Positions 400-28,283 of a stretch of 64,000 nucleotides of DNA are shown piece after piece. The DNA is taken from the IMG/VR virus record IMGVR_UViG_3300045999_011735, positions 50,997 to 114,996 of that record. One strand, 5' to 3'. The notes beneath the pieces are model-generated. The model was not told where the DNA came from. It ran no database searches and saw only the letters and a program-made list of their open reading frames with translations. The position numbers and the translations under genes were made by a program. The stretch comes from a virus. Every line of letters starts with the position of its first letter. The first letter of the stretch is position 1.

Positions 400-815
400 T
401 ACTCAAAATTAACTGTTACTGTGTCTGTTTGTCCTGAAATTAGAATTTGATATATTATTTTAATAACTAAAGAATTACTAACATTATTTGGTTCTTGTGT
501 AAATTCTATATTATTAATTGATATTTCAGGAATATACACTTGAACACTGTCTCTAATACTATCTTCAATATCGCTAAAAGAGGCTTCAGTCATTGGGTTA
601 AATAACTGAGATCTTAAAGTTGTTCCAAAATTAGGATTGTCAATCCTTTCACCTTGGGAGGTTAATATTAGATTAATTAAATTATATTTCAATTGGTCTT
701 TAGTTGAAAAAGTACTATAAAATACACCAGGAGCGTTAAACGGAAGTCTAACGCCTATTGCTGTGTTTCGCTGTAGATCTCTAGGATCAACTCTAGTACT
801 TCTTACGTAAGCCAT
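399..815 (-). CDS. baseplate wedge/sheath initiator, gp25/GPW-like
   Basis: NLINLILTSQGERIDNPNFGTTLRSQLF motif; next to the gp6-like gene. Confidence 0.9.
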   Translation of the reverse strand: MAYVRSTRVDPRDLQRNTAIGVRLPFNAPGVFYSTFSTKDQLKYNLINLILTSQGERIDNPNFGTTLRSQLFNPMTEASFSDIEDSIRDSVQVYIPEISINNIEFTQEPNNVSNSLVIKIIYQILISGQTDTVTVNFE

Positions 816-1141
816 TATTGAACATTTCTAAAATTACTAACTTCACCTGGATTTTGTCTCATTTCTGCAGCAACTTGAGCCAGCATGTTTTGGTAAACAT
901 TTTGTTTTTGAGCTGGTGTAGTTGGTTTGGCTTGTGGCGCTCCTTGCATTCCCATTTGATCCATCAAACTTTGACGGAAAGCAGCAGGGTTAACATTTTT
1001 AGTAGTTAAATTAACTGTAGGCCATTCCTCAGTAGCAGCTAATGATTCCTGGATTTTTTGTTTGCCGATATTGGCTAGTTCTTCTTTCAAAACTTCCCTA
1101 ACGGCTTCTTTAATTAGATTTTTTAAGTCTTGTGTTTTCAT
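815..1141 (-). CDS. hypothetical protein (LKNLIKEAVREVLKEE N-terminus)
   Basis: ORF coupled to neighbour; ATATTTAT just upstream. Confidence 0.75.
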   Translation of the reverse strand: MKTQDLKNLIKEAVREVLKEELANIGKQKIQESLAATEEWPTVNLTTKNVNPAAFRQSLMDQMGMQGAPQAKPTTPAQKQNVYQNMLAQVAAEMRQNPGEVSNFRNVQ

Positions 1142-1152
1142 ATCAATAAATA

Positions 1153-2460
1153 TTAAGCTTCGAGATTTCGTTCGTCGATTTGGAGTTTTAAATCTTCAAT
1201 TAAAACATCAGAATTTAATGTAAATGATGGTTGTGTACGTAATACGATAAATCCACTTCTATCTAAAGCAACAGCATATCTACGTTTATTTCCATCTACT
1301 ACAAATTTAGGATCATTTTCTTCATATATTGCAAAAGTAAATCCTTTATATGAAACATTAGGTACTGCACCTAATTGACCACCACCTTCTAACTGTGCTA
1401 CTAATGCATTAATTTCATTTGGTGATAAGTCATTGTCAATTGCTTTATCAATAATATCGCTAATTGGTAATAATCTTGATTTTTGGTATTGTACTTCAAT
1501 TACTAATCCATTTAATGCTTCTCTAGTAATTCCTAACATTACTGTTATAGAATCTAATGTCATTATAGCATCTGTTATTTTTTTAACAGTACCCGGAGTT
1601 GCTGGGGTAGGGATTAATAATAGTATTCTAACAACTATAGAAATAATTCTTAATATTCTTTCTAAAGTTCTAATTGTATTTCTAATTTTAGTAATTTGAC
1701 GTTCAGCTTTATTTAATTCAACTAAAGCAGCATTTCGTACTACCCTTGCTCTTAATACATCCTGTTTAGTTTGAATATTTAAAATTTGTTCGTTTACTCT
1801 ATCAACTAAATCAGTTAATTGCTGTACTATTTTAGCTAATCGCTGAACTTCTCTATTCAATAATTTAGATATGATAAATAGAGCTGCGGCTTTAGCTAAT
1901 GATCTAATTGCTGAACTATTTTTCTTTGCAATTGCTCTAGCATCATTTATTTTAATTTTTTTAACATCTTGTTTAACAATAGTATCACTTTTCCTTTCAG
2001 ATGCTTCTACTGTTTGTTTTAATTCTCTTTTCCTAAATATATTTCCTACTCTTCTTGTAAGATCATCTACTTTAGTTTGAACAGCTTCTAAAAATTTAGT
2101 AAGTTGTTGAACTTCTTTTTCTGCTTTTTTCTTTTTTTCCTCTGCAACTTTTAACTTTTTATCGGCTTCATTTGATAAATTTTGTCTTATTTGTTCTGAA
2201 TTTGCTCCTGGTTGGTTAGCTTGTTGGTTGAATGTTGCTGGGTCTGGAGCAAGAGTAGCAGCAGCAGCTAAAGCAGCATCAGCAGATAATTGTTTGTTAC
2301 TTAAAGTACCAGCATATGATTTAGCTTGTATAGCAGCTGCTTTAGCTTGTTCATATAGTGCTTTAGCATTTTCATACCTACGTCTTCCCTCTTCGTATAG
2401 TTTACGATTTTCCTCTATCTCTTTTTGAGTATTTTCTATCCTTTCATCAATAGTAGCCAT
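1153..2460 (-). CDS. long coiled-coil protein, probably structural
   Basis: 435 aa helical, Ala/Lys/Glu-rich; in the baseplate block. Confidence 0.6.
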   Translation of the reverse strand: MATIDERIENTQKEIEENRKLYEEGRRRYENAKALYEQAKAAAIQAKSYAGTLSNKQLSADAALAAAATLAPDPATFNQQANQPGANSEQIRQNLSNEADKKLKVAEEKKKKAEKEVQQLTKFLEAVQTKVDDLTRRVGNIFRKRELKQTVEASERKSDTIVKQDVKKIKINDARAIAKKNSSAIRSLAKAAALFIISKLLNREVQRLAKIVQQLTDLVDRVNEQILNIQTKQDVLRARVVRNAALVELNKAERQITKIRNTIRTLERILRIISIVVRILLLIPTPATPGTVKKITDAIMTLDSITVMLGITREALNGLVIEVQYQKSRLLPISDIIDKAIDNDLSPNEINALVAQLEGGGQLGAVPNVSYKGFTFAIYEENDPKFVVDGNKRRYAVALDRSGFIVLRTQPSFTLNSDVLIEDLKLQIDERNLEA

Positions 2461-3668
2461 TATAAGGTCTTTACAGTTTTAGAAAGTAAATTATCTTTAT
2501 TTAACTTTTTAGTATTATTACTAAGATATGTTTGTAATTTTTCGGCAGCTAAAGCTATATCCATAATAGTTATACCTTCAGGAGTAGCCTTAGCATCAAT
2601 TATATCAGTGCTAAAATCACTTAATGCCTTATATAATCCAGATAAAAGTTGTCTTAAATTATTTCCTAAAACAACAGGTTGAAGTTTATTAAATGAAGTA
2701 TCTATTGATGGTCCTAAAGCAATAATATTATCTTGTATAGTTATTCCTGTTTTATCACTTTGCATATAAACAGGACCTTGAGAATATAATTCAACACCTG
2801 TTCTACCAAATACTAATACTTCATCTGATTTAGAAGAAATAATAGTTCTATCAGCATTTATAATTGCTTGAGGATTTGAATAGGAAGATATACCAATAGG
2901 TTCAGTAATATTACTTAAACGTACGTTACCTATATTTAAAGGAACAATTTGTTGAGATGTTAAGTAAAATGAAGATCCATCTTGGTTAATATTTTCAACG
3001 TATAAATCAGAACCTGAAGGTTTAAATCCATGTTCATTTGAAAGAATAAGAATAGGATTACTATTTAATTCTCCTGGGTTGGTAGACCATGGTGTTAAAT
3101 CTTTATCTCCTGATCTATTTGTACTTCCAAAACGAAGTGAATTTCCAAATCGACCTTCTAAAACATAGTCACCTTCAAATGTTTGTACTCCTCTAAAATC
3201 AGAATTTTGTGTAAATGAATTATATAATAAATCTTTATTTTCATTAATAAATAATCCGTTAAATTGAGGGCTATTCCATGCATTAATTACACTTAAGTAA
3301 TAAGTTTCTTCTGTTTTATTTGTAATAGGAGAAGGTGCTGATGGTAAATCCATCAACAATACTATTTCACCTGGTAATGGGAAATACTTTTGGTTTGGAT
3401 ATAAAGGTAAAGCAGTAGGTAACGTAGCAAGAGTAGCATCATTCAACTGATCCAAAGGAATTTCAGTTGATTCATCATATATTTGATACAATATAGTTCC
3501 TACACCAGCCCAACCACCATTAGCATCCCATACTTTTTCAGGGACACTAGTTGGGCCTAATATAACAGCATAAACCTTTCCTGTCTTAAATTGAAAAGGA
3601 GGCAAAAAGTTATTATTACCAATAGAGGTAGTAATAAACGATAGACCTTCTCTTATTCTAGTACTCAT
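2460..3668 (-). CDS. baseplate hub/central spike (gp5/VgrG-like)
   Basis: N-terminal OB-like PLPGEIVLL, EGDYVLEGRFGNSLRFG, C-terminal beta repeats and QPVVLG. Confidence 0.7.
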   Translation of the reverse strand: MSTRIREGLSFITTSIGNNNFLPPFQFKTGKVYAVILGPTSVPEKVWDANGGWAGVGTILYQIYDESTEIPLDQLNDATLATLPTALPLYPNQKYFPLPGEIVLLMDLPSAPSPITNKTEETYYLSVINAWNSPQFNGLFINENKDLLYNSFTQNSDFRGVQTFEGDYVLEGRFGNSLRFGSTNRSGDKDLTPWSTNPGELNSNPILILSNEHGFKPSGSDLYVENINQDGSSFYLTSQQIVPLNIGNVRLSNITEPIGISSYSNPQAIINADRTIISSKSDEVLVFGRTGVELYSQGPVYMQSDKTGITIQDNIIALGPSIDTSFNKLQPVVLGNNLRQLLSGLYKALSDFSTDIIDAKATPEGITIMDIALAAEKLQTYLSNNTKKLNKDNLLSKTVKTL

Positions 3669-3669
3669 A

Positions 3670-4023
3670 TTAGTTATTTGTAGGTCCGCTAATGTTGTCT
3701 CCTACTTCTTTTACAGCAGAAAACAATTGTTCTTTTTCAGCCTCACTTAAAATATAACTAGCAGCTTCATCACTATTACTAGATAATGCACGCTGAACAA
3801 TACCTGCTAATTTAACAAGTTGTTCATCATTTTTAACACTAATATTAAGGTGCTCAGCAATTAAAGGAACAATCATAAGAGCCGATTGAGCGTCACTGAC
3901 CAATGGTTTAAGAGTCTCAATTAGGTCTCTAATTTGCTTTTCTTTATCCTTAGAATTGGTATATATGTCCTTGAGTAAATCAGAAAACTTTTTACTGCCC
4001 CACATTACTTGATCAAAATTCAT
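3670..4023 (-). CDS. conserved hypothetical phage protein
   Basis: ORF; KNDEQLVKLAGIVQR. Confidence 0.7.
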   Translation of the reverse strand: MNFDQVMWGSKKFSDLLKDIYTNSKDKEKQIRDLIETLKPLVSDAQSALMIVPLIAEHLNISVKNDEQLVKLAGIVQRALSSNSDEAASYILSEAEKEQLFSAVKEVGDNISGPTNN

Positions 4024-4062
4024 TGTCTAATTTTTGACTATAAATATAGAAGCAGTAAAAGT

Positions 4063-4866
4063 TTATATATTTACATACCCCTGTTCGTAATATGAATTAT
4101 ATAATTGAACATAAACAACCTTTAACTTTTTAATTATTTTAGTGATTTGGGGTGTTTCAACATCAACCATCTCACGTATATAAATGTAAAGGGCTTTTTT
4201 ATTGAATATGTCTAATGATTCACATTTACGAAATAGCTCCATTATAGCATCAGCTGTTTTAGCATCATTTTCTTTAGGGAATAATTTATTAAGATTTTTA
4301 TCTATATACTTAATATACAATCCCATGAACTCTGTAAGGCTATAGTCTTGGCTATAATGCTCATTTAGTGTTTCTTCTTTAATTTTTTTATCATCATCTA
4401 CTTCGGCCAAGTCACCTTTGTCTTGTAGTTTTTGATAATTTTTCTTATTTTTAAGGATAAGGTAACGCTTTGCAATAGTACCAAAATATGAATAAGCTTT
4501 ACCTTTATGTGGTTTATAAAGCTTAAGTTTTTCAAGTAAAAATGCAATTACTTCCTGCTGCATATCTTCTACGGATTCACCATCCATATAATAAAACTTA
4601 AACGTATGAATAATATTTTGGGTTAATTTAAAAAACCCATACTCAATACGTTCGCGATACACAGTATTTCTAAACTCCTGGTCATCTGAGGCTACATATT
4701 CCACAATAGCGTTTTGAGTATCCTCAGTAAAATAAGTATTAGATGTTTTAGGTTTACGTTTGCGTACTTTTCCAGATTTAGTATACTCGACAGTTACTAA
4801 ATTATCTTCTACTAGAAGACTATTGGTTTGGTTGTTGTCCACGCTTTTTATTAATGTTAAAGTCAT
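4063..4866 (-). CDS. phage sigma-70-like transcription factor (candidate late sigma)
   Basis: Region-2-like EDMQQEVIAFLLEKLKLYKPHKGKAYSYFGTIAKRYLI; C-terminal HTH-like segment; true start may be downstream. Confidence 0.7.
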   Translation of the reverse strand: MTLTLIKSVDNNQTNSLLVEDNLVTVEYTKSGKVRKRKPKTSNTYFTEDTQNAIVEYVASDDQEFRNTVYRERIEYGFFKLTQNIIHTFKFYYMDGESVEDMQQEVIAFLLEKLKLYKPHKGKAYSYFGTIAKRYLILKNKKNYQKLQDKGDLAEVDDDKKIKEETLNEHYSQDYSLTEFMGLYIKYIDKNLNKLFPKENDAKTADAIMELFRKCESLDIFNKKALYIYIREMVDVETPQITKIIKKLKVVYVQLYNSYYEQGYVNI

Positions 4867-5128
4867 TTAATTCGCTTTGTAATGTTTTTACACTCTCAAA
4901 GAACCAACCAATTTCATCATCAGAATGAAACGTACCTTTAGCATCTATATCTTCCAAACGTCTATTAGTATTATTTACAGCATTAGAAAAAAGGGCAATA
5001 TATTGATCTTGTGAATCAACAATTTTTTCCAACTTTTCTACTTTTTTAAATAAATTATAAGACACATATCCCGAAATAGAAGCCAAAGCCGATAAAATAA
5101 TAATTGTTATAATCATAATTAGTTCCAT
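4820..5128 (-). CDS. membrane-anchored coiled-coil protein
   Basis: N-terminal hydrophobic helix followed by coiled coil. Confidence 0.65.
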   Translation of the reverse strand: MELIMIITIIILSALASISGYVSYNLFKKVEKLEKIVDSQDQYIALFSNAVNNTNRRLEDIDAKGTFHSDDEIGWFFESVKTLQSELNDFNINKKRGQQPNQ

Positions 5129-5325
5129 TCATCGTTTTCAATAGAAATATTATCCTGCAACTGTTGAAGTAACGTTTTAATCATTTCTAATCTAGCATTA
5201 ACTTGTTGAAGTGAACCTCCACGATTCAAATCAATTTCTAATGCACGTAATTGATGTTCAAGTTTTTCGATTTTTGAAAGTGCTTGTTGTTTATATTTCA
5301 TAAAATATTTTTTAAGTATTATCAC
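5119..5325 (-). CDS. hypothetical coiled-coil protein
   Basis: ORF; start probably at internal MKYKQ. Confidence 0.6.
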   Translation of the reverse strand: MIILKKYFMKYKQQALSKIEKLEHQLRALEIDLNRGGSLQQVNARLEMIKTLLQQLQDNISIENDEWN

Positions 5326-5465
5326 AATATACGACCTTTATTTTCAATAACCAAGTTTTCAACGCCCTATTTTTAGAGCGATTTTACCCTTACTCCTCAA
5401 TAAATACGTATATACACGCATTTTAACAAGAAAGATAGCCTAAAAGGTTTTTACACACTTTAGAC

Positions 5466-5732
5466 TTAACGACGAGACGCCTCAACCATTTGTTTGAGGT
5501 TAATTTTCTTAATTGGATACGAAAAAGTCTTCTTATCAATCAACTTATCAAGCAATTGTATCTCAATTGGATTATCAGTTATAAAGATACATTTATCATC
5601 AGCACCATCACCAGGAATATCAATAAAATTTTGAGTATTAAGCTTAGTACCAGGTTTAACCTGACCAAGAAAATCATTCATTTTGTTAGTGAAGGCTGCT
5701 TTATCGCGATCGCGCATTAAATATTCTGCCAT
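5466..5732 (-). CDS. hypothetical protein
   Basis: ORF with ATATTTAT upstream. Confidence 0.65.
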   Translation of the reverse strand: MAEYLMRDRDKAAFTNKMNDFLGQVKPGTKLNTQNFIDIPGDGADDKCIFITDNPIEIQLLDKLIDKKTFSYPIKKINLKQMVEASRR

Positions 5733-5777
5733 GATATAATTTTGAGTATATACTGGATATAAATATATGAAAGGACT

Positions 5778-5969
5778 TTAGGTACCGTGCTTTTTGGATT
5801 TGCGCTTATGTTTATCCAATTCAAACTTATAATAACGAATATTATTACCCTTAGCAGAGAAAAATTCCTTAATTTCCGGCTTACCATAATTAGTCTCAAT
5901 ATTCATAACCAACTCGGGACTAATAGTATGGATATAATCAACAGTAAATTGAGAATAAATAAGAATCAT
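5778..5969 (-). CDS. hypothetical protein
   Basis: ORF abutting the GIY-YIG gene. Confidence 0.5.
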   Translation of the reverse strand: MILIYSQFTVDYIHTISPELVMNIETNYGKPEIKEFFSAKGNNIRYYKFELDKHKRKSKKHGT

Positions 5970-6440
5970 CTAAATACCAGCATTGTTTTCACCAATAATA
6001 CGAATAATAACATCCTCAGCCATCTTGGGAGTAACGGCAAACCCCTCCTTATTAACGTGATACTCCCACAATTGTGTATGGACCATACCCTCAATATGCG
6101 ATGGGGCCTTACAAGCAAATGAATTAATAATATACCACGGGGTAATAACACCCGTACCACCATTAATTTCTTTTAAACGCGATTGGGGTGTACGATCCGT
6201 ATATCCAATTTTTAATATACCTGGTTGTCCTTTATTTTCCAACACGTATATATAACCTTCATTAAATGATAATTGGGCATCAAAACTGTGTCGCTTAATC
6301 CAATAATGAACAAGTTCAAATTCTGGATCATGTGGATCTGGTGTAAGTGTATAGGCATTGGCATATACAACGGATTCACCTTCATTTTTAGGGTAATACT
6401 CGCGTTTAGCCTCCTCCATTGTGATAAGCTTTATCATCAT
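5970..6440 (-). CDS. GIY-YIG / T5orf172-domain protein
   Basis: GYIYVLEN...LKIGYTDRTPQSRLKEIN...IEGMVH...KEGF. Confidence 0.85.
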   Translation of the reverse strand: MMIKLITMEEAKREYYPKNEGESVVYANAYTLTPDPHDPEFELVHYWIKRHSFDAQLSFNEGYIYVLENKGQPGILKIGYTDRTPQSRLKEINGGTGVITPWYIINSFACKAPSHIEGMVHTQLWEYHVNKEGFAVTPKMAEDVIIRIIGENNAGI

Positions 6441-6655
6441 AAGATAATACCTTTAACTACTACGTGCGTAGATGGGTTTAAAACAAATTTAGCATCTTCA
6501 TGTGGACCATAATACCAAGCTTCATTTACATTCAAGGCAATTTCTTTTTCCTCACCTATAACAACATCACAATATCCACCTTCGTATCCATTAGTGAATA
6601 CATGTAAATCGGGATCTAGCTGTTGTAATTGTTGGATTAATTCTTTAATGGTCAT
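6437..6655 (-). CDS. small phage protein (MTIKELIQQL family)
   Basis: common phage small-protein N-terminus; GYEGG motif. Confidence 0.7.
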   Translation of the reverse strand: MTIKELIQQLQQLDPDLHVFTNGYEGGYCDVVIGEEKEIALNVNEAWYYGPHEDAKFVLNPSTHVVVKGIIL

Positions 6656-6867
6656 TTTCTAAATTTAGAGATGAAAAAATCAAAACAAAATAACCAATCA
6701 AACATGATTGCTCGTGGAATACTAGAAACATACAAATCAAATGTAAGTGGTTGTTCAAAAACCTCTGCCTTAATAGATGCATAACGAAATGCTCCTAATG
6801 TTGAGGCAATTAAAACATAAACTAAAAGTACTAATTTTAATGTTTCCATGATTTTTAATTTAGACAT
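6652..6867 (-). CDS. small membrane protein
   Basis: hydrophobic N-terminus; start likely at METLK. Confidence 0.55.
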   Translation of the reverse strand: MSKLKIMETLKLVLLVYVLIASTLGAFRYASIKAEVFEQPLTFDLYVSSIPRAIMFDWLFCFDFFISKFRK

Positions 6868-7158
6868 TAATTTACGTATATACGCTTGGTTTCCAAAAAA
6901 AGATTGTCAAAAGAAAGGTTTCACCCCCTATAGATATTTGGCGAAAGGGGTATAATGGATTTTGTGGAGCCAAAATCTAGCAATATTTTGTTGGATATTT
7001 GTATATATGCGCGCCTTGGGTAAAGATCGTAGTTTATCTGTGAGTACGGGGCAGGCCGCGACATATATGCGGCCCGTCGATGGACCGCTATTGCCGTGGG
7101 GTCATAACGATAGCGGAGCGCTATCGCCCCGCTATCGAGTATCCTTATTTTCTTTTTT

Positions 7159-7440
7159 TTATACCATTAACGGATTTGCCGCTACGATATTGTCAATTAA
7201 CTTATAATCACTATGACCATTATATAATTGATCATCAATTTGTATTGCAATGCCTAAGTTATTCTGTATACAATCATCTAATACAGTCAGTACTGATAAC
7301 ATATCATAATTACTTAAGTCCATTTCAACATAATATATGTTATTAACTGCATCATCAATTTCAATATTAAATCCTAGTTTCTGATATTCAGATAATACTT
7401 TGTAATTGGCATCTACAAATGCAAACATTAACTTTTTCAT
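7159..7440 (-). CDS. hypothetical early protein
   Basis: ORF with AAAAGTTATG leader and own promoter. Confidence 0.7.
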   Translation of the reverse strand: MKKLMFAFVDANYKVLSEYQKLGFNIEIDDAVNNIYYVEMDLSNYDMLSVLTVLDDCIQNNLGIAIQIDDQLYNGHSDYKLIDNIVAANPLMV

Positions 7441-7631
7441 AACTTTTAATTTTAATTATTTAATCATTTTAACATGTTAAATATAATAAATTTAGTTATG
7501 TTTATTGAGGAACTCTTGTGATTAATTTGCTTCTACCTTTACACCCATATCCGTTTGTAGCACAGCTGGTTAATCCAGATAATAGAGCTAACATTACAAT
7601 TATTAACAGTATTACTTGATGTGGCTTCATC

Positions 7632-7832
7632 TTATTTAATTTTATAAATTAATCGTTTAAGGTCATTTACTTCTTCCTTTTGTTCCTCTATAATCACGAA
7701 ACATAGGAACACGACTGCCATTAGTAAGGTGATGAACATGAATGTTAGATCTAAATTGGTTTTAGCTGTAAACATTAAATACAATGCTAACACCCCTAAT
7801 ACTACACTGATAATACCATTTACTATTTTCAT
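7632..7832 (-). CDS. small two-TM membrane protein
   Basis: two hydrophobic helices; own promoter. Confidence 0.7.
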   Translation of the reverse strand: MKIVNGIISVVLGVLALYLMFTAKTNLDLTFMFITLLMAVVFLCFVIIEEQKEEVNDLKRLIYKIK

Positions 7833-7890
7833 ACTTATTAATTTTATAAATTAAATATAAGGAGGGGAATTGTGTTCCCCTCCTATTCCG

Positions 7891-8136
7891 TTATATTCCA
7901 AATTTAGCTCTTGTTTCAACGTATTCATTATACAATCCACCTCGTTGATATATTACACCCAAGGCACTTAATAGCACTTTTGAAGTGCATTTATGACTTA
8001 TCCCCATAAAATCACATACTTGTCTTTTGACATTAACGTAATTGGGGGCAAGGTGTTGTTTGTGTTTAATGTGCATTATAGTATCTAACAATAATGCTTT
8101 CACTTGCAGGCGATTGAATGTTACTGTTTGTTCCAT
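7891..8136 (-). CDS. hypothetical early protein
   Basis: ORF with own promoter. Confidence 0.7.
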   Translation of the reverse strand: MEQTVTFNRLQVKALLLDTIMHIKHKQHLAPNYVNVKRQVCDFMGISHKCTSKVLLSALGVIYQRGGLYNEYVETRAKFGI

Positions 8137-8187
8137 ACGTTTTAATTTTATAAATTAAATATAACACAGTTTGTTGGGTTAACAAAT

Positions 8188-8209
8188 GGACCCCCTAGAA
8201 AGGGGGTCC
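8188..8209. terminator. intrinsic terminator-like hairpin
   Basis: GGACCCCCT-AGAA-AGGGGGTCC perfect stem just after a stop codon. Confidence 0.7.
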
Positions 8210-8213
8210 GTAA

Positions 8214-8423
8214 TTAAAAATTAAAAGTATGAACAGTCTTTATTTGGCCATGATTCCAGTCTTCCATTATTTGATTTGCTCGATCAATTCCGTCTCTACT
8301 TCTACACATTCTAGACACGTTCAATTGTTTCATCCATTCCTGGAATTTAGGGTCCAGTTGTGTTTGTAGTCGTTCTTGTTCAAGCCGTTCCCATTGTTCA
8401 ATGGTAATGTCTTTTATGTTCAT
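8214..8423 (-). CDS. hypothetical early protein (start revised to MNIKD)
   Basis: AAAAGTTATG leader at 8423 with promoter upstream. Confidence 0.7.
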   Translation of the reverse strand: MNIKDITIEQWERLEQERLQTQLDPKFQEWMKQLNVSRMCRSRDGIDRANQIMEDWNHGQIKTVHTFNF

Positions 8424-8457
8424 AACTTTTAATTTAAATAAAGATATGAAGAGGGGT

Positions 8458-8772
8458 TTAGTTCCCCTCTTCGTCCAAATAATTTCCAAGTACACCTTCA
8501 ACCACACGTTTAATTTTATTGTCATCAAACTCAATACTTGTTAACTCCACCTCACGATAATTCATTTCCAACTCATAATCACTAAGTACATCTGTACCCC
8601 AACTACTAAATTCGTTTTGGAGTGCCTCCACAACGTCATCAATAATCTCTTTAGTGATACCTCCACCATTCAACTCATTTACCCATTTAATTACTTCACT
8701 TACTGGTACGTAAGCAATCTTTACTAATTCATCTGATGATTGGAGCTTGTCCAATAATTGTTGTTTTGTCAT
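8458..8772 (-). CDS. acidic hypothetical early protein
   Basis: ORF with AAGGTTATG leader and promoter. Confidence 0.75.
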   Translation of the reverse strand: MTKQQLLDKLQSSDELVKIAYVPVSEVIKWVNELNGGGITKEIIDDVVEALQNEFSSWGTDVLSDYELEMNYREVELTSIEFDDNKIKRVVEGVLGNYLDEEGN

Positions 8773-8837
8773 AACCTTGATTTTTAATTTTTAATTAATC
8801 AAATTAACAAGTTAAATATACACAAAAAAATTGTGTT

Positions 8838-9023
8838 TCAAAATGTTTCCCTAATTAATACTTCCACTCTAGCTTGTGTGTACTTTGCTTTTACATTTTC
8901 ATACATCTCCATTGCTTCAATTAGTTGTGTTCTTACTGTACCTGATTGAAACTCATTATCAACCTTAATGTAATAGGTAACATCACCTATTGTATTAAAT
9001 TCTTTAACTAATTCAATTGTCAT
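8838..9023 (-). CDS. hypothetical early protein
   Basis: ORF with leader and promoter. Confidence 0.7.
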   Translation of the reverse strand: MTIELVKEFNTIGDVTYYIKVDNEFQSGTVRTQLIEAMEMYENVKAKYTQARVEVLIRETF

Positions 9024-9084
9024 AACTTTTAATTTTATAAAATAAAGATATGTAAAATAATTATGTTTACAAGCTGAAAATTTG

Positions 9085-9115
9085 TTTGGAAACCAAATAA
9101 TCTTTTTTACATTTA
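9085..9115 (+). promoter_or_regulatory. Bacteroidota-type promoter on the plus strand
   Basis: TTTG-gaaaccaa...(19 nt)-TACATTTA; same consensus as the minus-strand early promoters. Confidence 0.7.
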
Positions 9116-9120
9116 CATTG

Positions 9121-9200
9121 TCATTTGGACGGGCGCCCTATGAAATGGGTGGAGGGATCAGAGGTAGGCTGCCTAAGACGTCTTCCACTATCCCCAAAAT
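9121..9200. ncRNA. candidate small structured RNA between convergent promoters
   Basis: GC-rich island; GTGGAGG pairs with CTTCCAC, TAGG/CCTA hairpin, TTTGG/CCAAA ends. Confidence 0.45.
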
Positions 9201-9210
9201 AAAATTGGTC

Positions 9211-9242
9211 TAAAATTACGAATAAGAATTTGGTTTCCCAAA
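9211..9242 (-). promoter_or_regulatory. Bacteroidota-type promoter facing the plus-strand promoter
   Basis: TTTG-ggaaaccaa...(20 nt)-TAATTTTA on the minus strand. Confidence 0.65.
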
Positions 9243-9321
9243 TCATACCAGGACAACAAAAGACCCAGTTCATTAATTAAAACGAACCGGGTCTAGTTGA
9301 TAACCCCTAAATTACCAACAA

Positions 9322-9573
9322 TTAAGCCACTTCTGTTGTGGCTTGTTTCTTTGGGCGTCCACGCTTCACAACTTCACCATTTGCAATTCGTTCTGCAAAC
9401 GCTGCGAGACGTTGCTGGCGTGCACTGTTTTCATTTGGTTTACGTCCACGTTGAACACTTAATCCTTGCTCTGCCAATGCGGCACGAGTTGCAAGTTTCA
9501 ACTGACGAGCGCTGTTAGGATTTACCTTACGTCCACGCTGTTTTGTTTCGGTTGTCTGAATTGTTGTTTCCAT
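9322..9573 (-). CDS. small basic AT-hook-like DNA-binding protein
   Basis: QRGRKVNPNSARQ and QRGRKPNENSARQ duplication plus KRGRPKK. Confidence 0.7.
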   Translation of the reverse strand: METTIQTTETKQRGRKVNPNSARQLKLATRAALAEQGLSVQRGRKPNENSARQQRLAAFAERIANGEVVKRGRPKKQATTEVA

Positions 9574-9744: not shown

Positions 9745-10110
9745 CCATTACCCACATTACTCTGTTTCATTCCACATATTATCAAATATCCATACATAAA
9801 AAAATACCGATATGTTTATGTTTTGATATACTTATATGCTATCTTCCATATTTGGAACGTTTAACATATAACATAAATCTATGTTAATTTGTTGAGTTTC
9901 CCGCGTAAACTTCAATTACCTCTTGTCAATCACGCCTATGGTCACATAAAAAGAAGGCGCGGTAACTACGTTATATTCAACCATAATGTTATACCAGTAT
10001 GTTCCCACGTAGGGACGTTACCCGTTTCTATCGTTCCCCCGTTTCACCGTCCGACGTTTACCCACATTACGTTTATCCACATTACGGTTCCCACGTAACG
10101 TTATATTCTT
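9745..10110 (+). repeat. non-coding cluster of short direct repeats including DnaA-box-like 9-mers
   Basis: TTATCCACA 10073-10081; TTACCCACA 9748 and 10058; GTTCCCACGTA twice; ACGTTATATTC twice. Confidence 0.6.
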
Positions 10111-26484: not shown

Positions 26485-26561
26485 TGAGGAAAGCAGTAGA
26501 TGGGTGCGTGGACAACTGCTTTTATGATTAGCTTTACTAACCTAAGTCCTAATCAACCTCA
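26485..26561 (-). ncRNA. unknown three-way-junction RNA in the tRNA cluster
   Basis: TGAGG/CCTCA closing stem; TGATTAG/CTAATCA and AAAGCAGT/ACTGCTTT arms. Confidence 0.55.
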
Positions 26562-26596
26562 GTGGCGTCAATGCTTGTTTTAGCACCGTCTTCAGG

Positions 26597-27013: not shown

Positions 27014-27090
27014 CTTTTTTCGTTTTTGTTAAAAAATTTAAGCGACCATAAATATATGGTTACTTATTTGGGTTTCCAAATTTAATTTAG

Positions 27091-27474
27091 TGGAGGAGAC
27101 GGGAATCGAACCCGTGTATCCATAAGGAACAATAACACCAGCGTATCACATGCTTAGATCTGCAAGCTGATCAGTAATTGGGGACGCTAGTTTTGGTTAG
27201 CGTGCCTACCACCACCTAATTTTATGAAACTAGGAAAACTAGAGCTATAATACTGAGACTATAGCGGGGTTGCTGTTCTGTTGCAAGGCTATCAGCTGCC
27301 CCTTGCGGATTAGGCTGCTACAGCGTAATCGGCACCTACGAACGCCATTAAGTCGTCGAAGGTCATTGTTGACATTTCGTCATTTATTGGTTGAAAATTT
27401 GTTTAAAGACGACATATCCAAACGTCTGCATGTAGTGGTACCTTCACATTACGGAGCAATACCTGGACTCCCCC
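27091..27474 (-). ncRNA. ssrA: tmRNA
   Basis: 5' GGGGGAG pairs with CTCCTCC-A (G3:U70), T arm ACGGG-TTCGATT-CCCGT, internal tag ORF ending YAVAA*. Confidence 0.93.
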
Positions 27475-28088: not shown

Positions 28089-28283
28089 TTAATCTTCAAT
28101 ACTATTGCGTAATTGTTGTTTGTATATTGCCTTTAATTTTTTACCTCGTTTTTCAACAGAAGGTTTAGTATACTCTTGTCTACTACGTAATTCTTTTACA
28201 ATACCAAGTTTATTGTGCTTGTTTTTATATTGTTTTAATGCTTGATCTATTGACTTAAAATCTTTAGTATTTACTATAATCAT
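28089..28283 (-). CDS. rpsU: ribosomal protein bS21
   Basis: SIDQALKQYK...KELRSRQEYTKPSVEKR. Confidence 0.92.
   Translation of the reverse strand: MIIVNTKDFKSIDQALKQYKNKHNKLGIVKELRSRQEYTKPSVEKRGKKLKAIYKQQLRNSIED

Follow-up and report, generated by a model that had tools for sequence, protein, structure and literature searches.

A predicted plus-sense small RNA gene and its facing antisense promoter in the early region of a T4-like lake phage

A GC-rich island enclosed by two converging promoters raises the question of whether it encodes a functional molecule and, if so, from which strand. Such an island was noted at positions 9085 to 9242 of a 64,000-nucleotide stretch of viral DNA (the window), which comprises bases 50,997–114,996 of the IMG/VR contig IMGVR_UViG_3300045999_011735 (114,996 bp, rated 67% complete) and comes from a large T4-like lake phage. 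A sequence-only reading of the window had described its only plus-strand promoter as facing a minus-strand promoter across the island, and had proposed, as alternatives, a sense/antisense pair of small RNAs acting as an early switch, a replication primer with its counter-transcript, or an RNA decoy. Comparison with homologs indicates that the island very probably holds a real non-coding RNA gene in the plus sense. Its 5' part forms two hairpins, P1 and P2, which are followed by a nearly invariant purine-rich block of 17–20 nucleotides (nt), GAGRGAUCAGAGGUAGG, and by variable hairpins downstream of the block (Table 1). The high GC content noted between the promoters was confirmed, with up to 60% GC at 9109–9201 in a genome of 31–34% GC. 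Outside the cluster of tRNAs and transfer-messenger RNA (tmRNA), this is the second-strongest GC island, behind only 6999–7155.

P1 and P2 (9118–9151) are the best-supported helices of the element and differ from the pairings listed in the sequence-only reading. That reading had called for a covariance model and for covariation in homologs; such a model (R1) was built, and P1 and P2 do covary. In a model-based alignment of 23 sequences, 97.3% of the 220 cells were standard pairs, and changes on both sides were seen in 7 of the 10 pairs (40 cells). None of 500 shuffles reached the observed pairing, covariation score or pair-type count, and pairing fell to 39–53% when the partners were slid by 1–3 columns. 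The structure had guided this alignment, but an anchor-based table built independently of the model gave the same picture, and RNAalifold recovered the same two helices. The covarying positions were pairs 3–5 of P1 (G-C/A-U 16:5; U-A/C-G 19:3; C-G/U-A/A-U) and pairs 3–5 of P2 (C-G/G-C 14:7; C-G/G-C/A-U/U-A; C-G/U-A/U·G). Pair 1 of P2 was C-G in 22 of 22 sequences, and pair 2 was G·U in 19 of 22 and U·U in one subtype. Pairs 1 and 2 of P1 showed one-sided changes only and would sit upstream of the predicted RNA start. This start was placed at G9120 because the -7 box of Flavobacterium sigmaA promoters occupies -12 to -5 (PMC9723704). It is a purine in all family members and represents the third base of P1, which is the first covarying one. 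Within the predicted RNA, P1 would accordingly be limited to its inner three pairs, 9120–9122 with 9128–9130.

The two hairpins also assign the strand. In the anchor-based table, 174 of 176 cells paired in the plus-sense reading, 43 of them as G·U, compared with 131 of 176 in the minus sense. Because G·U pairs turn into A·C mismatches on the other strand, the predicted folded RNA is the plus-strand transcript only, which would be antisense to the whole early region. A 20-codon plus-strand open reading frame (ORF) is present at 9140–9202, as had been stated. However, the loop and stem lengths of P1 and P2 differ by 1, 2 or 4 nt among members, the ORF takes its ATG from the P2 loop, a codon that members with a GCGGG-type P2 do not have, and the homologous locus L007 (homologs are given as L numbers) shows a frameshift plus mostly non-synonymous changes. 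For these reasons the gene is judged not to be protein-coding, and the ORF is not conserved.

Homologs could not be found by direct comparison: a 3-kb query had no blastn match among 50,697 records of isolated phages, and initial exact-pattern scans that included variable positions were equally negative. The protein of 61 amino acids (aa) encoded downstream (8838–9023, minus strand) had 18 relatives, and their alignment pulled out 12 metagenome loci. Four of these contained the whole 300-bp intergenic module, with 91% identity in L003, L005 and L006 and 76% in L007, and in all four other genes were inserted between the module and the 61-aa gene. A search of 2.9 million viral contigs, first with the invariant 17-nt piece and next with two degenerate patterns, gave further candidates, among which R1 told true members from chance matches; R1 also found paralogs. 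The resulting family has about 30 distinct sequences with R1 scores of 18–96 bits, all in uncultured phages. Three complete or near-complete T4-like relatives have one copy each; L019 has five copies within 9 kb, and L022 and L036 have two each, every copy with its own promoter. Of 17 copies examined, 16 have flanking genes that run on the other strand, and four of the five L019 copies are likewise oriented against the genes.

The block behind P2 is the most constant part of the family. The sequence GATCAGAGGTAGG occurred without change in 18 of 18 first-found sequences, and GATCAGAGGTA was present in 29 of 30 core sequences. Core identity was 100% in L003, L005 and L006 and 91% in L007, where the flanks reach 57–80%; over these loci together, flank identity was 57–91%. 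Between the window and L007, identity decreased from the core (91%) through P1–P2 (83%) and the coding end (63%) to the terminator region (57%). In the 173-kb relative G001/L002, which was reached via a 104-aa neighbour, no blastn-level match was present and R1 gave 12 bits for a weak, diverged copy. Because its core reads GAGCUAAAUCAAAGGUAGGCUAC, the "invariant" block can drift. This copy (G001:71766–71821, identical to L002:1734–1789, minus strand) has a long P1 loop and a P2 of the form CUGG..CCUG with U·U. L019 is IMGVR_UViG_3300047557_003468, with its copies at 685–9055, and belongs with L022 and L036 to a lineage of 35–42% GC. The paralogs in these three contigs follow the same promoter, TTGCCTGG..GTTCGTACCTTTAGG; the core variant GGTACGC is present in most of them, and in some the P2 G·U is replaced by U·U or G-C.

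The statement that the element matches no recognized family was upheld by the Rfam searches. Rfam 15 at gathering thresholds gave no match at 9085–9242 in a scan of the window, only chance-level matches of 10–20 bits were obtained for 8900–9400 at E values up to 10, and none of the 12 homolog loci matched. ARAGORN and the Rfam tRNA model detected no tRNA at the island, and none was found in 10 homolog loci. A full-text literature search for the core sequence retrieved no paper. Fremin et al. 2023 (PMC10690425) describe 10,006 unnamed candidate structured RNAs from IMG/VR, and the present family may be among them. A type I toxin-antitoxin system was rejected, the 20-codon ORF being not conserved and its peptide not hydrophobic.

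Transcription of the gene is predicted from its promoter. The early promoters of the phage follow the pattern TTTG(G)AAACCAAAT ... TAnnTTTA with N19 between TTTG and the box, and the same pattern precedes small minus-strand genes, the tRNA cluster and the tmRNA. Bacteroidota sigmaA promoters consist of TTTG at -33 and TAnnTTTG at -7 (PMC9723704), and by match with this description the phage pattern is of the same type, which suggests a Bacteroidota host. A sigma-70 scan of the region reported neither of the facing promoters, and neither is a sigma-70 consensus site. A regular-expression scan of the 115-kb contig gave 40 matches on the minus and 8 on the plus strand, with about 5 and 10 in shuffles, respectively. 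Among the plus-strand matches, the extended GAAACCAAAT -33 region is found at site 9085 only, and the description of this site as the only plus-strand promoter holds in that form. The convergence of promoters on both strands was equally borne out by the TTTG and -7 boxes, which can be read directly at 9085–9115 (plus) and 9242–9211 (minus). In nearly all aligned homologs a TAnnTT[T/C/G]A box lies 1–2 nt before P1, its two "n" positions varying freely, and the plus promoter is at a fixed distance in nearly every copy.

Table 1. Features of the predicted small RNA gene and of its surroundings (window coordinates).
Feature	Position	Strand	Description
Predicted small non-coding RNA gene	9120 to ~9205	+	Predicted 5' end G9120; putative 3' end ~9190–9205 or up to the hairpin 9261–9294
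Plus promoter of the small RNA gene	9085–9115	+	-33 TTTG 9085–9088, 19-nt spacer, -7 box TACATTTA 9108–9115
P1 hairpin	9118–9132	+	TTGTC / GACGG, loop ATTTG
P1–P2 linker	9133	+	Single G
P2 hairpin	9134–9151	+	CGCCC / GGGTG, loop TATGAAAT
Purine-rich core	9152–9171	+	GAGGGATCAGAGGTAGGCTG; family consensus GAGRGAUCAGAGGUA[G/C]GYU
Tentative 3' domain	9149–9188	+	GTGGAGG 9149–9155 / CTTCCAC 9182–9188, enclosing TAGG/CCTA hairpin
Facing promoter	9211–9242	-	-33 TTTG 9242–9239, 20-nt spacer, -7 box TAATTTTA 9218–9211
Terminator hairpin of upstream early gene (9573–9322)	9261–9294	-	14-pair hairpin, then TTTTGTTGT
Promoter of next early gene (61 aa, 9023–8838)	9043–9073	-	CTTG, 19-nt spacer, TATCTTTA

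The facing promoter is constant in position where it occurs. Its box ends 54–58 nt past the core GATC in ten copies (the window, L005, L015, L020, L024, L028, L018, L030, L031 and one L019 paralog), several of them with widely differing 3' domains. L007 has, as an eleventh, the near-consensus box TACCTTTC at the aligned place. The predicted antisense start is A9206, which would give an overlap of 87 nt with the sense RNA. Since the next early gene has its own promoter (likewise in L003, L005 and L006), it does not need the facing promoter, and since the upstream gene in addition ends at a terminator, the predicted antisense transcription would be driven by a dedicated promoter. The facing promoter is lacking in L016, L025, L026, L023, L029, L035, L037, L041 and most paralogs, which is about half of the family. 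Antisense control is therefore not essential to the RNA, and the putative antisense partner belongs to one subgroup as an accessory and does not define the family. The proposed sense/antisense RNA pair stays a candidate in view of the conservation of both promoter motifs, but only the plus strand shows the fold and about half of the members have no facing promoter.

The region behind the core is less uniform. The pairings listed in the sequence-only reading are all present in the window, but TTTGG/CCAAA (9124–9128 and 9194–9198) is unsupported, with TTTGG located in the P1 loop and freely variable in homologs. Several homologs (L023 GUGGAGGGA/UCUCUCCAC, L029 GGUGUGGA/UCCACACC, L028, L007, L035 ACCGG..GGG/CCC..CCGGU) have the GTGGAGG/CTTCCAC helix with matching changes on its two sides, and others lack it. 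For the 3' domain, z was below -1.5 in 8 of 28 copies, and the long-range helix is not general. It competes with P2, because it uses the last three bases of that hairpin. The TAGG/CCTA hairpin (9165–9168 and 9172–9175) fits many members, in one of two registers. The only common lake-metagenome variants in the module are 9173 C>T, 9215 A>G and 9080 A>G. The first changes a G-C pair to G·U on the plus strand and leaves the stem paired, the second falls within the minus -7 box at one of its free positions, and the third lies upstream of the -33 region.

With modest confidence, we favour the reading that the gene encodes a stand-alone small RNA that is made early and acts in trans, with the invariant block as its functional part, and that in a T4-like subgroup the antisense promoter limits or times it. 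The unmodified host RNA polymerase with Bacteroidota sigmaA would probably make the RNA early, from its own promoter and opposite to the direction of all surrounding early genes. P1 and P2 would present the invariant purine stretch, with the variable hairpin domain behind it. The stretch would be the working part, binding a protein or a short RNA site that is itself conserved among hosts or among phages. The RNA would then be an early host-takeover or regulatory RNA acting in trans, although action in trans through the invariant block, taken by itself, is a tentative proposal to which we give slightly less than an even chance. In the T4-like subgroup, the early promoter 87 nt downstream would fire back across the whole gene, and its antisense product, complementary to the small RNA without mismatch, would continue into the next early gene. 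Polymerase collision and RNA duplex formation would probably let each promoter limit the other, and how much small RNA is made, or when, would depend on this. On whether the facing promoter is a functional regulator, our judgement is evenly divided.

Several observations weigh against this reading. Folding of the window sequence was not better than that of shuffles (z of -0.41 for the plus strand, -0.02 for the minus strand and -1.5 for a 166-nt span), and support for the structure thus comes from the homologs alone; as the members are related, the covarying-cell counts overstate independent events. No single consensus fold could be assigned to the 3' domain, where the hairpin registers and the long-range helix each fit a part of the family only. 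No plus-strand intrinsic terminator was found after the RNA gene in the window. Candidate plus-sense terminators in L025, L026 and L037 were rejected, because their hairpins have the T-run on the opposite strand and serve the converging gene as terminators. The absence of the facing promoter from about half of the family counts here as well. Expression of either strand is predicted from promoter motifs; in the metatranscriptome run X20, whose contigs do not cover the island, about 5% of the sampled words were present, too few to count for or against it. The 21–23-nt core patterns had no match on either strand of 185,579 prokaryote species genomes. Targets of the core in the 115 kb of the phage, its own antisense excepted, reached -25 kcal/mol at best, compared with -22 to -27 kcal/mol in shuffles. 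Pairing with the C-rich loop at 26485–26596 was also discarded, a 7-bp match to the P2 region being at chance level by estimate.

More specifically, the RNA might be an early anti-host effector of a novel kind. In this case, which we regard as speculative and rather unlikely, a core Bacteroidota machine (ribosome, RNA polymerase or an RNase) or a defence protein would bind the purine block with high affinity, and the antisense promoter exactly 87 nt away would be the phage's own antidote or timer. If so, many lake phages would share one RNA takeover device with a built-in off-switch.

The rival explanations each account for fewer features than the trans-acting small RNA. It is improbable that the locus is a pure cis switch, in which the convergent promoters throttle each other and the downstream gene and the RNA itself has no function. 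Such a switch would fit the promoter spacing that is fixed in ten copies plus L007, the entry of the predicted antisense transcript into the 61-aa gene, and the lack of a trans target in 115 kb. However, covarying hairpins and a 17–20-nt block that is invariant across phages of 31–42% GC would then be unexplained, the facing promoter is missing from about half of the copies while multi-copy lineages keep the RNA part, and the downstream gene has its own promoter.

An early promoter directly before a structured, purine-rich conserved block would also suit the primer RNA of a replication origin, whose R-loop would prime early DNA synthesis and whose facing promoter would supply a counter-transcript. 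The multiple copies in some lineages would be in line with this, as T4 has several origins (oriF and oriG, with ColE1 RNA II as a further model), and so would the repeat-rich GC islands, 2 kb away on one side and 0.8 kb on the other. We nevertheless consider a primer quite improbable. The cumulative GC skew does not inflect near 9.1 kb, an AT-rich unwinding element and not a GC island is required at T4 origins, nothing connects the RNA element to replication genes, and counter-transcript control of copy number has no known use in a lytic phage. No tie between the RNA element and the repeat-rich islands turned up, no search having been aimed at such a link.

Two stem-loops separated by a one-nucleotide junction right behind a promoter resemble the HK022 put RNA, and the element could act in cis on the nascent transcript, as a put-like antiterminator that alters its own polymerase or, in the manner of a riboswitch, by sensing a ligand, to control the antisense run into the upstream early genes. 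The competition of the long-range helix with the base of P2, which makes pairings mutually exclusive in several members, and an invariant, junction-like block of the kind typical of ligand- or protein-binding cores would agree with this. It is still very unlikely, given that no same-direction gene follows downstream, that no likeness to any Rfam riboswitch or leader was found, and that the alternative helix is absent in many members.

A further possibility is a decoy of a host RNA, such as a clustered regularly interspaced short palindromic repeat (CRISPR), the 3' tail of 16S rRNA, the rpsU leader or part of a tRNA. The phage encodes the ribosomal protein bS21, the core contains GAGGU and GGAUCA, an early promoter of its own precedes the RNA gene, and some lineages carry several copies. 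We have little faith in a decoy either. At the level of the full 21–23-nt core patterns, which are absent from both strands of all 185,579 species genomes, an RNA anti-CRISPR (Racr) was rejected. A Shine-Dalgarno decoy or rpsU-leader mimic was rejected too: only GAGGU (5 nt) is invariant and able to pair with the anti-Shine-Dalgarno sequence, whereas the GGAGG-like part varies and is GAAGAG in many members. Neither an extended Shine-Dalgarno sequence nor a copy of the 16S tail is present in the 115 kb, and ARAGORN called no tRNA. Finally, a non-functional island (a remnant, a chance island or a tiny protein gene), to which the insignificant single-sequence fold and the existence of the 20-codon ORF might point, is hardly credible in view of the covariation, the strand asymmetry, the fixed promoter geometry, the highest local conservation and the lack of conservation of the ORF.

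The trans-acting small RNA can be compared with several systems. ColE1 RNA II/RNA I, P22 sar-ant and 186 pR/pL likewise have promoters facing each other at <100 bp and complementary transcripts, one of them small and structured with 5' hairpins. In contrast to these modules, the present locus has no sequence or structure likeness to them, no copy-number or lysogeny decision is involved, an invariant 17–20-nt block is found only here, and the facing promoter is missing from roughly half of the members. Racr, which are solitary repeat units, and pseudo-ToxI are also stand-alone small RNAs with an early promoter and an invariant block, and are sometimes multi-copy; Racr, however, copies a host CRISPR repeat, whereas here the core is in no prokaryote genome and no hairpin-plus-handle is seen, and no ToxN-type partner is located nearby. 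HK022 put, which renders its RNA polymerase insensitive to terminators, shares the two stem-loops with a single unpaired nucleotide between them, directly downstream of a phage promoter, but there is no sequence likeness and no same-direction operon, and the invariant part follows the hairpins. A promoter-driven phage small RNA with a cis-antisense partner is a precedented kind; the family is new, as is the fixed two-promoter geometry in large lytic Bacteroidota phages.

Freshwater Bacteroidota T4-like phages are abundant and uncultured, and their early genes are mostly unknown. The RNA gene offers a testable handle on the action of the phage in the first minutes of infection, and the face-to-face geometry a simple natural module for transcriptional interference or antisense control in Bacteroidota. 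These bacteria are not known to have Hfq and mostly do not use Shine-Dalgarno sequences. RNA catalogues gain a family of about 30 members together with a working covariance model.

Across the family, no gene next to the RNA is conserved. The gene at 9322–9573 (minus strand) encodes an 83-aa protein with three RGRK/RGRP units, for which the Pfam AT_hook model gave 13.4 bits, below the cut-off. It adjoins the RNA gene in the window, L007, L015, L020 and L024 and not in other members. This AT-hook-like protein was rejected as a conserved partner, as it is adjacent in the window-type subgroup only and other members have unrelated neighbours. Pfam and PHROGs gave no function for either neighbour gene.

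The source is, as judged from its genes and relatives, a large (~170-kb) T4-like lake phage. This assignment is based on the family-B DNA polymerase, which has 35% identity to the polymerase of Microcystis phage Mel-JY01, followed by T4-like cyanophages, on the three complete or near-complete relatives of 155–174 kb, whose DNA polymerases are 60–90% identical, and on many lake-water metagenomes that carry near-identical DNA, the phage being present in lakes with 95–99% of its sampled words. The contig has 29–35% GC, and all its ORFs of at least 250 aa are on the minus strand. Other genes in the window encode GroEL, glycosyl-, carbamoyl- and methyltransferases, bS21 and the tmRNA; by ARAGORN and the Rfam tRNA model, six to seven tRNAs and one tmRNA lie elsewhere in the window.

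Lake-metagenome contigs show joints at 7157->7501, 7485->9085 and 9072->7437, and promoter sequences mark the ends of many of them. Strains seem to exchange early gene cassettes at the promoter and leader sequences that they share. The non-coding island at 6999–7155 (minus sense), 2 kb from the RNA gene, is the most GC-rich of the contig, with up to 67% GC, and contains CGATAGCGG / CCGCTATCG units in repeated copies; strain contigs skip it or break within it (joints 6963->7074 and 7009->7074). On the other side, a 58% GC island at 9988–10100 (minus sense) consists of tandem GTAATGTGG(A/G)TAAAC and GAAACGGG units and probably corresponds to the "iteron-like repeats" of the sequence-only reading.

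Three further RNA-related loci were noted on the minus strand. The bS21 gene (28116–28274; Pfam Ribosomal_S21, 47 bits) lies about 650 bp from the tmRNA (27088–27474), which is complete and encodes the tag peptide DEMSTMTFDDLMAFVGADYAVAA. A 112-nt gap in the tRNA cluster (26485–26596) is tRNA-free and contains the C-rich stretch GUCCACGCACCCAUCUAC. The segment 12882–12979, 13 kb from the tRNA cluster, scored 36 bits with the Rfam tRNA model and received no tRNA call from ARAGORN; its shape resembles that of a tRNA whose middle part is too large.

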